From Bacteroidales bacterium (GTDB lineage: Bacteria > Bacteroidota > Bacteroidia > Bacteroidales > P3), in contig JAKSMS010000002.1 of the NCBI GenBank assembly GCA_024400415.1, positions 5,679 through 69,678 of the forward strand: a DNA stretch of 64,000 bases, read 5' to 3'. This document shows, piece by piece, positions 23,621 through 46,878 of this stretch. Under the pieces are notes generated by a model. The model did not search any database. It had not been told where the DNA came from and saw only the letters and a list, made by a program, of their open reading frames with translations. Both the position numbers and the translations under genes were made by a program. Position 1 is the stretch's first letter; the number at the start of each line of letters is the position of its first letter.

Positions 23621-25066
23621 ATGGACACAAAAAAACTCATTGGTCTCTTGGTATCCATACTCGCATTCTTTGTGATATGGTTCATGCCAAGCACCGCGTT
23701 CGGCATCGATGGCCTGACTGTACTCCAGCAGCGCACCATCGCACTTTTCGTATTTGCCGCCTTGATGTGGATCTTTGAGGCTATCCCCAGCTGGACCACC
23801 TCAGTCCTCATTATCGTGATTGCGCTCCTCACTCTCTCCAACAAGGGTCTCGGATTCTTGATGGTAGATGCATCAGGCGCAGAACTTGAAGGCGTGATGA
23901 AGTACACCAAGATCATGTCGGCATTTGCTGACCCAGTAGTTATGCTCTTCCTCGGTGGCTTCACCCTGGCAATCATGGCTCAGAAGTATGGTCTTGACGT
24001 TACTCTCGCACGTATCCTCCTCAAGCCCTTCGGCTCCAACCCCAAGATGGTGCTCCTCGGCTTCCTCGTGGCGATTGCCCTCTTCTCCATGGTTATGAGC
24101 AACACCGCCACCGCAGCCATGATGCTGGCCTTCCTGGCTCCTATCCTCGCCACCTTCCCCGACGACGACAAGGGTAAGATCGGCCTCGCCCTCTCTATCC
24201 CTGTAGCCGCCAATATCGGCGGTATCGGCACCACCATCGGCACCCCTCCAAACGGCACCGCCGTTTCCAACCTCGAGACTGCTTTCGGTATCAACATCTC
24301 TTTCGGCGACTGGGCTATCCACATGATCCCCTTCGTGCTCATCATGATCGTCATCTCCTGGATCGTGCTCCAGATTATGTTCCCCTTCAAAGGCAAGAAG
24401 CTTGAAGTCAACATCCCTAAGAACGACAAGCCTACCACCTGGCGTACCTACCTTGTGTGGATCACATTCGGAGTGACTATCCTCCTGTGGGGCTTCGAGA
24501 GCCTACACCACATCAGCTCCAACGTAGTGGCTCTCATCCCTCTGGCAGTATTCGTATGCACCGGCACCTTCACCAAGGAAGACATCAAGCAGCTCGACTG
24601 GAGCGTGCTCTGGCTCGTGGCCGGAGGCTTCGCACTCGGCTATGCAATGCTCGACATCGACAAGGGCGGCACCGGCCTTGGCGCAGCACTTGTAAATGCT
24701 ATCCCCTTCGGCAGCATGAGCATCATCCTCGTGTTCGTCGTAGCCGGCCTCGTATGCTACCTGCTCTCCAACTTCATCAGCAACTCCGCCACCGCAGCAC
24801 TGCTCATCCCAATCCTTTGCGCAGTTTCCAACGGCCTCTCCAGCAACCCAGCCTTCGAGTCCTTCGGCGGCACCAAGGCAATGGTTATCTTCGTAGCCAC
24901 CTGCGCTTCGCTGGCCATGCTGATGCCTATCTCCACTCCACCAAACGCCATCGCATTCTCTACCGGCCTCATCAAGACCAAGGATATGCTCAAGGTGGGC
25001 GGTGTGATCGGAGTAATCGGTCTTGTGTTCGCCTTCTTCTGGCTCACCAAGATCTTCCCATTCTAA
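23621..25066 (+). CDS. SLC13/DASS family anion:sodium symporter
   Basis: SNTATAAMM and STPPNAIAF hairpin motifs. About 12 TM segments. Confidence 0.85.
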   Translation: MDTKKLIGLLVSILAFFVIWFMPSTAFGIDGLTVLQQRTIALFVFAALMWIFEAIPSWTTSVLIIVIALLTLSNKGLGFLMVDASGAELEGVMKYTKIMSAFADPVVMLFLGGFTLAIMAQKYGLDVTLARILLKPFGSNPKMVLLGFLVAIALFSMVMSNTATAAMMLAFLAPILATFPDDDKGKIGLALSIPVAANIGGIGTTIGTPPNGTAVSNLETAFGINISFGDWAIHMIPFVLIMIVISWIVLQIMFPFKGKKLEVNIPKNDKPTTWRTYLVWITFGVTILLWGFESLHHISSNVVALIPLAVFVCTGTFTKEDIKQLDWSVLWLVAGGFALGYAMLDIDKGGTGLGAALVNAIPFGSMSIILVFVVAGLVCYLLSNFISNSATAALLIPILCAVSNGLSSNPAFESFGGTKAMVIFVATCASLAMLMPISTPPNAIAFSTGLIKTKDMLKVGGVIGVIGLVFAFFWLTKIFPF

Positions 25067-25097
25067 GATTCTATTTCACCCGAAATAATCACCCAAA

Positions 25098-25129
25098 GGG
25101 GATGCGCGAGACGCGTCCCCTTTTTTTTT
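25098..25129 (+). terminator. rho-independent terminator
   Basis: GGGGATGCG / CGCGTCCCC stem followed by a 9-T run. Confidence 0.85.
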
Positions 25130-25229
25130 GTCAACGGACGAATGCCGAGCGTCCCGACCACCAGTTCCCTCCCTAGGATGAGAGTGGGAAAAACAACCTA
25201 TCTAAATAGTGTATAGATCAATATTATAT

Positions 25230-25336
25230 GGTGCATATGTGCTATATATGTACTATATATGTGCTATATTTCTGCTATCTCTATAGAATAGGACATATAT
25301 AGCACAAATATAGCAGATATATAGCATATATGCACC
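25230..25336. repeat. 107-bp imperfect palindrome built from 11-bp GCTATATATGT-type iterons (copy A)
   Basis: GGTGCATATGTGCTATATATGTACTATATATGTGCTATATTTCTGCTATCTCTATAG | AATAGGACATATATAGCACAAATATAGCAGATATATAGCATATATGCACC. The arms are near reverse complements of each other. Confidence 0.9.
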
Positions 25337-25545
25337 AGTTATAAAGCAGATAGGGCGGCAGTAGGACATTGGATTGTGGGAATCGGTGGATGTGCAGTAT
25401 TCGGCTGATTATAGCTGCCGGCAGCTATGGGTGTGCTGCTTGGCGGGCAGGGGAGCGGTTCTCGCGGCAACAGTCTGAGAGCGGCCGCAATGGGAGGTTG
25501 GCTGCTTGTGCCTATTGGGCATGAATTATACAAGATTAGCGATTG

Positions 25546-25558
25546 CGAAATGTTAAAT
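25546..25558 (+). promoter_or_regulatory. CGAAATGTTAAAT motif, copy 1
   Basis: Exact 13-mer, read directly. Confidence 0.4.
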
Positions 25559-25600
25559 TTTAAGATTTGGTATTGAGATACAGCGGGTTGTGATAAGAAA

Positions 25601-25613
25601 CGAAATGTTAAAT
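25601..25613 (+). promoter_or_regulatory. CGAAATGTTAAAT motif, copy 2
   Basis: Exact 13-mer, 36 nt upstream of the -7 box at 25650. Confidence 0.4.
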
Positions 25614-25649
25614 CTTTGTGTGAAATTTTGTCACATGGTCACTTTGTAG

Positions 25650-25657
25650 TACTTTTG
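25650..25657 (+). promoter_or_regulatory. Bacteroidetes -7 promoter box TACTTTTG
   Basis: TAnnTTTG match 32 nt upstream of the ATG at 25690. Confidence 0.5.
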
Positions 25658-25689
25658 CAAAATATTTTTGAACTAAATCATACTTTACA

Positions 25690-27075
25690 ATGGAAGAAAA
25701 AACAAATAAGAATGAAACTTCTGAGGTGGTAGTTGCAGGACGCACCCACATCTCGGATCTTTGGAAAAAAGAAGACTGGCTGGCTTGCTGGATCGGCGCT
25801 ATTGTGATAATAGTTGCCTGCGTAGCAGTGCTTACTGGTGCTTTCGACTTCTCGGCCACTAAGTTTGCCAAATGGCAGATTTGGGAGGGCAAAGAGGATA
25901 TTGCCTCGCTCGGCAGCCAGTTTGCCGACTGTGCCTTCTGGGGCAAGCTGCTCCTCACGTTCCTCGTTACCGGCGTGCTCTTCACCATCGGTGCTAAGCT
26001 GCAAGGCGAGAAGATTAAGAAGTACGTGCCCGCCTACGTGATGCTCTTTGTGCTGGCCGTAGTGGTGCGCCTGATTAGCGCCGAGTTCACCCTCAACCGC
26101 TATCTCGAATGGGCTTTCTGGGCATTGATCGTGGGTCTGCTGATTTCTAATACCGTAGGTGTGCCAAACTGGCTCAAACCTGCCATCAAGACCGAGTTCT
26201 ACATCAAGTCGGGCCTCGTTATCATGGGTTTCTCAGTGCTGTTCAGCAATATCGCCAAGTTCGGCCTCTATGGCCTCGGTATCGCTTGGATTGTTACCCC
26301 TATTGTGATCATCTTTATGTGGTACTTCGGCACCCGCGTGCTCAAGCTTCAGAACAAGCCTCTCGTGATGACTCTCGCTGCCGCTACCAGCGTGTGCGGT
26401 ACCTCGGCCGCCATCGCTACCGGCGCTGCCGCCAAGGCTAAGAAGACCGACCTCTCGCTGGCCGTTTCTATTTCGATTATCTTCACCATCCTCATGATGG
26501 TGTTTGAGCCTATCATCCTCAAGGCTACCAACTGGACTCCGATCATGGGCGGCTCGCTCATCGGCGGCACGGTAGACAGCACCGGCGCAGTAGTTGTGGC
26601 TGGCACCGCTCTCGGCGAGGAGGCTCAGACCGCTGCCGTGCTCGTGAAGAGCATCCAGAACATCCTTATCGGCTTCATCGCCTTTGCAGTGGCCCTCTTC
26701 TTTGCCACCAAGGTGGACAAGACCAACGGCCAGAAGGTTGGCGCAGCCGAGATCTGGTACCGCTTCCCTAAGTTCATCATCGGATTCTTTGTAGCCAGCC
26801 TCGTGGCCAGCTTCATCATTCAGCCAGCCTTTGGCGCTGATAACGTGAAGGCCATCAACGGCGTGCTCGACCAGTATAAGAACTGGGCTTTCGTGCTCGC
26901 TTTCACCTCTATTGGTCTTGACACCAACTTCAAGGAACTGGCCAAGCAGATGCAGGGCGGCAAGGTATTGTGGCTCTATGTTGTGGGACAGGTATTCAAC
27001 ATCGTGCTTACTGCCCTCGTGGTATGGCTGCTCCTCAGCGGCATCATCTTCGAAGTTCCTGTGCTGGAAGTATAA
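25690..27075 (+). CDS. YeiH/UPF0324-like polytopic membrane protein (putative anion exporter family)
   Basis: AATSVCGTSAAIATGAA segment typical of the YeiH family. Many TM segments. At 461 aa it is longer than the typical family member. Confidence 0.7.
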   Translation: MEEKTNKNETSEVVVAGRTHISDLWKKEDWLACWIGAIVIIVACVAVLTGAFDFSATKFAKWQIWEGKEDIASLGSQFADCAFWGKLLLTFLVTGVLFTIGAKLQGEKIKKYVPAYVMLFVLAVVVRLISAEFTLNRYLEWAFWALIVGLLISNTVGVPNWLKPAIKTEFYIKSGLVIMGFSVLFSNIAKFGLYGLGIAWIVTPIVIIFMWYFGTRVLKLQNKPLVMTLAAATSVCGTSAAIATGAAAKAKKTDLSLAVSISIIFTILMMVFEPIILKATNWTPIMGGSLIGGTVDSTGAVVVAGTALGEEAQTAAVLVKSIQNILIGFIAFAVALFFATKVDKTNGQKVGAAEIWYRFPKFIIGFFVASLVASFIIQPAFGADNVKAINGVLDQYKNWAFVLAFTSIGLDTNFKELAKQMQGGKVLWLYVVGQVFNIVLTALVVWLLLSGIIFEVPVLEV

Positions 27076-44504: not shown

Positions 44505-44529
44505 GCCCCTTATCTGTATCCAATCTGGC

Positions 44530-44633
44530 TTATATGTGCTATATTTGTGCTATATATGTGCTATATATGTCCTATTCCTATAGGATAGCAGAAATATAGC
44601 ACATATATAGCACAAATATAGCACATATGCGCC
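44530..44633. repeat. ~104-bp iteron palindrome, copy B (best alignment is to the reverse complement of copy A)
   Basis: ATATGTGCTATATTTGTGCTATATATGTGCTATATATGTCCTATTCCTATAGGATAGCAGAAATATAGCACATATATAGCACAAATATAGCACATATGCGCC. By eye about 90 percent identical to the reverse complement of copy A. Confidence 0.9.
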
Positions 44634-46799: not shown

Positions 46800-46878
46800 A
46801 TAGGACTCCATAGGGGAAATAGGACAAAGTAGGAACCAATGACACATATCCTATCAAAGGTCCTATTGTCAATCCTAC
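46800..46878. repeat. phased TAGGA iteron array forming an imperfect palindrome
   Basis: TAGGACTCCA TAGGGGAAA TAGGACAAAG TAGGAACCAA (starts 46801, 46811, 46820, 46830), then inverted CCTA copies at 46850, 46862 and 46873. AATAGGAC (46818-25) faces GTCCTATT (46860-67). Confidence 0.7.

Follow-up and report, generated by a model that had tools for sequence, protein, structure and literature searches.

The 64,000-nt stretch of a Bacteroidales contig analyzed here (the window) contains a palindrome built of 11-bp units. The palindrome forms the core of a single copy of F1, our name for an interspersed repeat that is AT-rich, non-coding, and species-specific. The source assembly is a metagenome-assembled genome (MAG) of 1.84 Mb in 79 contigs, 81% complete, and F1 occupies at least 48 loci in it (∼80 pattern matches on the two strands, 48 loci after merging with BLAST). 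The copies share 80–95% identity and have 48 different unique flanks. As nine of the 48 lie within 1 kb of a contig end, the true copy number is probably higher. The first-pass annotation of the window had left room for as few as two copies, which is clearly not the case. Three unusual properties of F1 are well supported: a fixed 11-bp period, a conservation gradient running outward from the center, and an exclusion zone of ∼10 kb that holds across families.

In the window, the flagged palindrome (copy A; Table 1) is 109 bp long and imperfect. A repeat search of the window yields inverted arms of 50 nt each (25229–25278 and 25288–25337), 9 nt apart and 86% complementary, and direct repeats at exact 11-bp spacing within each arm (families D1 and D2). 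The two-unit pattern has nine matches in the window, while none are expected by chance (100 window shuffles); four of the nine fall in a second copy near 44.5 kb (copy B). The first-pass annotation had described a 107-bp palindrome with about four 11-bp units per arm and near-perfect reverse-complementary arms. The repeat search confirms the named units and their number, and the arms are indeed inverted, but the center is consistently asymmetric, and the given length fits the core and not the whole element, which continues in register as degenerate units on both sides. These outer units read CCTATCTAAAT AGTGTATAGAT CAATATTATAT on the left and AGTTATAAAGC AGATAGGGCGG CAGTAGGACAT on the right, and the information content of the flanks reaches background ∼40 nt outside the last core unit. 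The statements that the palindrome encodes no plausible protein and is not a CRISPR array were also correct: no open reading frame (ORF) of at least 40 aa overlaps it, the units abut without spacers, and the sole Rfam match to a CRISPR direct repeat is elsewhere and below threshold. The predicted fold of copy A has an energy of −31.9 kcal/mol as single-stranded DNA (z = −6.2 vs. shuffles) and −56.5 kcal/mol as RNA (z = −6.9 vs. shuffles). Its center reads GCTATCTCTATAGAATAGG on the plus strand, the family consensus on the other strand being CCTATTCTATAGAGATAGC. Copy B lies 19.3 kb away, downstream of a terminator and upstream of a dxs-side gene, and, judging from the asymmetry of the center, has the opposite orientation.

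The complete F1 element is ∼175 bp long and consists of two head-to-head arrays of 11-bp units around a 19-bp asymmetric center, with a core GC content of 32% compared to 51% in the genome. Counted from the center, units 1–3 of each arm are the near-invariant GCTATATATGT, that is, GCTATAT(A/T/G)TGT; unit 4 is GG(CGC/TTC/CTT)ATATGT; and the two or three outer units (5–7) retain only a G..T..TA.cT skeleton. Exactly 3+3 core units are present in 38 of 46 copies. The innermost units differ by arm, ending in ...TGT on one and in ...TCT on the other, and this difference, together with the center, produces two fixed mismatches and a 1-nt bulge in the stem. Hence, every copy has an orientation. Per arm, the median length of the longest uninterrupted stretch of complementarity is 32 nt; for the imperfect center, the median is 27 nt. 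The identity between arms of different copies is 0.91, 0.98, 0.91, 0.76, 0.48, 0.44, and 0.33 for units 1 to 7, respectively; conservation peaks in the middle of the element and fades outward over ∼40 nt per side. In the outer units, two arms of one copy resemble each other as much as arms of different copies do (0.45 vs. 0.48 and 0.44 vs. 0.44), so it is the unit skeleton that is conserved there and not copy-specific pairing. In an autocorrelation scan of the genome, 57 of 59 regions with period 11 belonged to the palindrome family, while periods 9, 10, 12, and 13 gave 0–2 regions. The same scan found 14 regions with period 7 and 10 with period 14, none overlapping the palindromes; these may be heptad-coding repeats in large surface-protein genes. 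A solitary direct 11-bp array, (CGGCATAACTC)x3–4, whose sequence is unrelated to F1 or to the second family described below, is situated at C6:31959–32037 (C numbers denote contigs).

At position 8 of unit 3 (A, G, or T), both arms carry the same letter in 31 of 44 copies, compared to 16.1 expected (permutation P < 5e-5), while position 8 of unit 1 differs between the arms in 40 of 46 copies. The two arms usually differ in unit 4, one having CGC and the other TTC (13 heterotypic vs. 2 homotypic cases, P = 0.007), and this asymmetry occurs in both orientations relative to the center (6 vs. 7). All combinations of the unit-1, unit-3, and unit-4 states are found. Such mosaic and "flip-flop" variants suggest exchange between F1 copies; given the palindromic arms, one copy may template another in either orientation.

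The genomic context of F1 was derived from a crude gene call (longest non-overlapping ORFs of at least 80 aa, covering 90% of the genome). All 48 copies are in intergenic DNA. They occur in 19 divergent, 20 tandem, and 3 convergent regions, with 8.1, 26.4, and 7.4, respectively, expected from intergenic base pairs (chi-square P = 8.5e-5). Counted by sides, 61 flanks face gene starts and 29 face gene ends (P = 0.001), a count that is robust to chimeric joins. With a median of 245 bp to the start codon, the copies are upstream of the TAnnTTTG-type boxes that the genes themselves have. F1 orientation does not correlate with the direction of the neighboring genes, which are housekeeping and include transporters, rpsO-pnp, and dxs. 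We also considered a promoter box within the repeat itself, as the GCTATATTTGT variant contains TAnnTTTG and the box is present in 36 of 48 copies, but its direction does not track gene starts (30/43 vs. 31/53), and we discarded this idea.

The copies avoid each other. All gaps between neighboring copies within contigs (n = 13) are at least 10.6 kb. When contig ends are treated as censoring, the 638 kb situated within 10 kb of F1 copies contain no further copy, compared to 16.7 expected at the genome density (Poisson P = 6e-8), and past 10 kb the hazard stays level, close to the density in the genome. When the same numbers of copies per contig were randomly placed in intergenic regions of at least 100 bp, the observed minimum gap was reached in none of 5000 trials. 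We see no mechanism by which an assembly artifact could remove pairs separated by 3–10 kb; the assembly runs through most copies, and none of the short contigs has a copy at each end.

The exclusion zone extends to a second palindromic family of 11-bp units, F2, with seven copies (Table 1), found by a position weight matrix (PWM) scan built from the F1 outer units. Its inner units are ATCTCCTTTTT-like, while the outermost ones are F1-like (GYGCTATAT...ATATAGCRC), and the copies are mostly in divergent intergenic regions. The minimum distance between F2 and F1 is 9.4 kb, and, for the two families pooled, one event is observed within 10 kb vs. 20.8 expected (P = 2e-8). Inside the zone, 2.2 kb from copy B, the window has a degenerate head-to-head TAGG(A/G) array with 9–12-bp spacing (46800–46878). 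Its motif resembles ATAGG of the F1 outer units, and it could be a decayed relative of the class.

The genome also contains a conventional family resembling MITEs (miniature transposable elements with inverted repeats), ∼215 bp long and present at ∼14 loci, with 98% identical copies and sharp inverted ends (...GTGTTGTCCAAA / TGGACAAC...). Its copies may sit 1.5 kb apart from each other and show no self-avoidance, hence the exclusion zone is specific to the 11-bp class. The family clusters near F1 and F2: six of the 14 copies are no more than 1.5 kb from such a palindrome (P = 8e-4), and it may use the palindromes as targets, or both may occupy the same permissive intergenic regions. One copy is directly 3' of a tRNA gene and its terminator.

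In relatives, the period is shared and the sequence is not. Among 24 congeners and 16 further families of the order, none had a BLAST match to F1. Searches with two- to three-unit patterns in public genome, metagenome, and viral collections, whose searched records did not include those near the genome studied here, returned only unrelated short direct arrays, and an exact-protein look-up of the flanking transporter, aimed at near-identical strains, returned no record. However, the pattern CTATA-N6-CTATA-N6-CTATA matches 44 of 120 congeners, several with 15–40 matches, whereas the 10-bp (N5) and 12-bp (N7) spacings match one of 120 each, and the 11-bp pattern is present in 7 of 200 genomes from the rest of the order. 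The CTATA core here is an ascertainment choice; the 11-bp period is not. Some congeners have dispersed palindromic families with other unit sequences (G064 with CCTATATCGTT, G123 and G087 with ACTATATTTAT, and G045), and others have long direct 11-bp arrays. In one of the latter (locus L028, G073:C138, approximately 1380–1650), ∼20 direct units change type twice, from seven GTCGTTGGGAA to three GAGTATAGTTA to nine GAGTAGGGGTT, a case of sequence replacement at a constant period. A unit of this array, GAGTAAGGGTT, resembles the F1 outer unit CAGTAAGGG. The divergent intergenic region that carries the F1 copy at C11:22672 is 565 bp long here, while in three congeners the orthologous region is 75–205 bp long and element-free. 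A further locus is conserved in four congeners (L023, G114:C8; L024, G085:C38; L027, G129:C36; L019, G130:C33; approximately 1370–1640), where a long run of degenerate direct 11-bp units (GGTAnnnnnnn / GGTATAGnnnn) is followed by a perfect palindrome rich in AT, which in L019 reads as N. The whole is situated upstream of a DUF6266 gene and, in two genomes, upstream of pnp as well. DUF6266 was considered as a candidate partner of the arrays and rejected, since it has no homolog in the genome studied here.

We infer that the F1 class is selfish or semi-selfish foldback DNA. In particular, F1 may be a foldback-type class of non-autonomous repeats, propagated or homogenized as DNA and surrounded by a target-immunity-like exclusion zone, an explanation to which we give an even chance. 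With one unit per turn of the DNA, a putative trans-acting protein would recognize the phased 11-bp array from a single face of the helix. Cooperative binding of this kind had been proposed in the first-pass annotation and is plausible; the conserved feature is the unit consensus and not copy-specific pairing. Seeding would take place in promoter-side DNA that is accessible and negatively supercoiled, and the cores of the copies would be kept alike by copying to new intergenic sites, by ectopic gene conversion limited to the homologous core, or by both; the palindromic arms would allow copies to pair either way round during conversion. Restricted to the core, conversion would account for the conservation gradient, the mosaics and the flip-flop of the center, and species-specific cores on older shared outer units. 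The multi-site arms would create the exclusion zone in cis, similarly to the transposase-binding ends of Mu or Tn7. A target-immunity-like effect of these arms would explain the zone most simply, and recombinational loss of close pairs is a less likely cause.

Several observations weigh against this explanation. A six-frame search of the genome, 81% complete, for PF01797 (Y1/RAYT) produced no match, while the controls matched. Self-BLAST of the genome revealed no multi-copy insertion sequence (IS), only paralogous surface-protein genes and the conventional MITE, although in an incomplete MAG copies of an IS may be missing. Direct repeats of 3–8 nt at fixed offsets of up to 75 nt from the core, expected of target-site duplications, did not exceed partner-shuffled controls, the sole signal being an internal palindromic CATATG. 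Neither unit-4 junctions nor a PWM of the outer units revealed empty-site-like sequences in the genome. The gradual outward decay without sharp termini is unlike a recently transposed unit or the 98%-identical, sharp-ended MITE, and to account for it the foldback explanation needs gene conversion or selection as an extra assumption. Finally, at four of ten independent loci with 11-bp arrays in congeners (rpsO-pnp, C9, C28, and C46), the ortholog of a flanking gene is less than 1 kb from an F1 copy here. The chance of this is ∼0.08 per locus (P ∼ 0.01), so that the coincidence is suggestive only, and the array is on the same side of the gene only at pnp and perhaps at C46. In our genome, F1 is ∼500 bp upstream of rpsO in the rpsO-pnp pair (C1:33806–36452); congeners G085 and G130 have their own 11-bp arrays upstream of pnp, with no rpsO in between. 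These shared neighborhoods hint at long residence or hot spots and not at free transposition.

The main rival explanation is that F1 copies are resident structural elements of the chromosome, that is, old intergenic palindromes useful to the host, with cores evolving in concert in each species; their function would then lie in the spacing and in the bias toward divergent promoters. They could be cruciform sinks for negative supercoils behind divergent promoters, or phased arrays for nucleoid proteins or topoisomerases, about one per domain of at least 10 kb. Such a role agrees with the strictness of the ∼10-kb exclusion, also between F1 and F2, and with the enrichment of divergent and depletion of convergent regions, which fits the twin-domain supercoiling model. 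It also agrees with the unit skeleton kept where the sequence has decayed, with a genus-wide 11-bp period independent of sequence, and with the four coincident neighborhoods, while AT-rich TATATA arms and a preserved imperfect center would keep a long palindrome viable. On the other hand, the patchy occurrence in the genus (76 of 120 congeners without a pattern match) and the wholly species-specific sequence are what one would expect of selfish DNA more than of a core function. Moreover, the three congeners mentioned above lack the element in an orthologous region, pnp is the only locus where the intergenic region is truly the same, and no binding protein is known. We consider a structural role rather unlikely. 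A genus-wide chromosome architecture phase-locked to the DNA helix, in which evenly separated foldback arrays, placed between genes on their promoter side, serve as cruciform or protein-array sites delimiting domains of at least ∼10 kb, with cores rewritten in concert per species and older unit types pushed outward, also seems unlikely to us.

The remaining explanations are less probable. Of the options in the first-pass annotation, the data favor a MITE-like element if the term is taken broadly, F1 being high-copy, dispersed, strictly intergenic, and species-specific, but target-site duplications, sharp ends, and a matching IS were not found. As a classical MITE, F1 would be an internally deleted DDE-type IS, moved by cut-and-paste by a transposase encoded on an IS missing from the incomplete bin. 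The small non-coding element with inverted-repeat arms of 50 nt is compatible with this, bins of this kind usually lose IS copies, and minisatellite-bearing MITEs with IS5-type ends (BrickBuilt and PgRS) are found in Porphyromonas gingivalis (PMC4596501). Still, MITE termini are normally the best conserved part, while the outermost parts of F1 are the least conserved; no terminal motif of the IS5/BrickBuilt type is present within 400 bp of any copy, and the genuine MITE of the same genome looks quite different. A classical MITE is improbable. The long RNA hairpin, also proposed in the first-pass annotation, found no support. A transcribed hairpin could be a small RNA precursor, an RNase III site, a transcript stabilizer, or a terminator, and its predicted stability is very high; copy A could be reached by read-through from the upstream gene, and Correia and ERIC elements act in this way. 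However, F1 has no orientation bias relative to neighboring genes, most copies are upstream of promoters, and no U-tract follows the stem. In a 10-copy alignment, none of 44 RNAalifold pairs has a compensatory change, the lone polymorphic arm column is unpaired in the consensus, and the outer arms lack copy-specific complementarity. No Rfam family reached its threshold in a permissive search: the best match was MIR2593 (42 bits vs. the threshold of 96), and all matches were generic long-hairpin miRNA models. An RNA-level element is very improbable. Replication- or partition-like iterons or a recombinase site, named in the same annotation, fared no better. Two blocks of 11-bp iterons are reminiscent of parC of plasmid R1, and the direct 11-bp arrays beside an AT-rich palindrome in congeners resemble an iteron origin. 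Nevertheless, at least 48 loci with unrelated housekeeping neighbors and no adjacent rep, par, or recombinase gene speak against an origin, a partition site, or a recombinase or invertase site serving the neighbors. An origin by chance or by assembly artifact does not agree with the absence of chance matches in shuffles, the 48 unique flanks, and similar families in independently assembled genomes. Copy number and context effectively refute this last group of explanations, and we find it barely credible. F1 is not a locus-specific operator, origin, centromere, CRISPR array, or RNA gene.

Copy A is in a 623-bp intergenic gap (25067–25689). As noted in the first-pass annotation, it follows a terminator in a region of ∼620 bp; the terminator hairpin is at 25095–25123 and is followed by a T-run, and the palindrome lies 110 bp past it. 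The symporter gene on the left faces copy A with its 3' end, while the start of the PF03601 gene on the right is ∼350 bp away. The TAnnTTTG-type box TACTTTTG at ∼25652, matching the consensus of Bacteroidetes promoters, is the own box of the latter gene. Between the palindrome and this box, a 16-nt direct repeat CGAAATGTTAAAT(T/C)TT (family D11) is found at 25546–25561 and 25601–25616 and may be an operator. The orthologous empty site of copy A was sought in the closest congener, where the two genes that flank copy A here are not in synteny.

Table 1. Features of the window and copies of related repeat families in the assembly (window positions, or contig and positions).
Feature	Position	Strand	Basis
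Left flanking gene, Na+/sulfate-citrate symporter family	23621..25066	+	Pfam PF00939 (1.4e-41), PF03600 (2.6e-38)
Intrinsic terminator of the upstream transporter gene, outside the repeat	25095..25132	+	Terminator scan (stem of 12 bp with 7 GC pairs, then a T-run)
Whole of copy A with degenerate outer 11-bp units (approximate limits)	25197..25369	.	Flank information content
Core palindrome of copy A (F1), with four 11-bp units on either side of the center	25229..25337	.	Inverted repeat and direct families D1/D2
Asymmetric center of copy A	25274..25292	-	Center sequences of all 48 copies and linkage table
Right flanking gene, PF03601 membrane protein	25690..27075	+	Pfam PF03601 (3.6e-47)
F1 copy B (core), inverted relative to copy A	44527..44633	+	Pattern matches, BLAST against own genome (C12:50210-50317)
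F2 copies	C28:561-730, C19:20052-20163, C65:4199-4315, C26:8741-8854, C57:9040-9156, C12:3243-3359, C78:39153-39252		PWM scan, own genome
MITE-like copies (among ∼14 loci)	C56:15182-15461, C56:13670-13892, C63:444-653, C33:11788-11994, C18:12949-13172, C12:3463-3669, C2:41684-41972, C30:13679-13840, C34:16393-16530		

REP, BIME, ERIC, and Correia elements have been known for 40 years, mostly from Proteobacteria, and their function and spread are still debated. We found no description of elements like F1 in Bacteroidales or other prokaryotes in the literature. In particular, we found no earlier description of a strict 11-bp unit common to a whole Bacteroidales genus regardless of the sequence, of centrally peaked conservation decaying outward, or of ∼10-kb exclusion across two families. 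Target immunity as the cause of the exclusion would mean that abundant bacteria of the gut or rumen have a transposition system not recognized so far, while a cause in chromosome structure would make the supercoil or nucleoid domains of Bacteroidales accessible through a defined sequence. The selfish and structural explanations make different predictions for strain-level polymorphism and for the occupancy of orthologous sites. In addition, such repeats break or confuse MAG assemblies, as the copies near contig ends illustrate, and could serve as species-specific markers.

Like REP/BIME/REPIN sequences of Proteobacteria, which have a RAYT Y1 partner, F1 is high-copy, intergenic, and hairpin-forming, with a species-specific sequence and an architecture conserved in relatives, and it too is possibly long maintained rather than freely transposing. 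However, REPs are 20–40 bp long, GC-rich, and tagged with GTAG/CGTC, whereas F1 is ∼175 bp long, has 32% GC, and consists of 11-bp units; neither GTAG nor CGTC occurs in units 1–4 of any of 46 copies. REP/BIME elements favor 3' ends and the convergent side, opposite to the promoter-side placement of F1, and, to our knowledge, REPs have no reported 10-kb zone of exclusion. Correia (CREE) elements of Neisseria and ERIC/IRU of enterobacteria are also intergenic palindromes, 100–160 bp long and restricted to a genus or species, often near promoters and with no cognate transposase identified. Unlike F1, Correia elements have defined 26-bp terminal repeats and TA duplications, and both lack phased units and act on co-transcribed mRNAs; self-avoidance has not been reported for them. 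Avoidance of insertion near an existing copy is a trait of Mu and Tn7 that F1 has as well, though the likeness is behavioral only. In the target immunity of Mu, Tn7, and the Tn3 family, ends with several transposase-binding sites block nearby insertions, and cis-immunity of Mu reaches roughly 5–25 kb, the scale seen for F1. The comparison is based only on spacing statistics and multi-site arms, no transposase or ATPase partner having been identified here.

The architecture of F1 has an analogy in eukaryotes, where Foldback (FB) and Galileo elements have long inverted arms of short tandem repeats with little or no middle part, and the repeats of Galileo, whose structure is dynamic, are multiple transposase-binding sites (PMC3688188, PMC3573991). 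FB and Galileo are kilobase-sized and have known transposases, and nothing suggests homology with F1. The closest published system is BrickBuilt, which, along with PgRS/MITE464, belongs to the minisatellite-MITEs of P. gingivalis (Klein et al., 2015; PMC4596501). Similar to F1, these elements are species-specific in Bacteroidales, always intergenic, made of short tandem units, and present in a few dozen copies. BrickBuilt has direct 23-nt repeats between a unique leader and tail, with IS5-type inverted-repeat ends GAGACCTTTGCA and bidirectional promoter activity; across BrickBuilt and PgRS, direct repeats of 23 or 41 nt are combined with a leader, a tail, and IS5-type ends (PMC4596501). The terminal motif GAGACCTTTGCA occurs three times in our genome and never within 400 bp of F1 copies. 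By contrast, F1 arrays are head-to-head, with an 11-bp unit and no leader or tail, and we class F1 with interspersed intergenic palindromic repeats.

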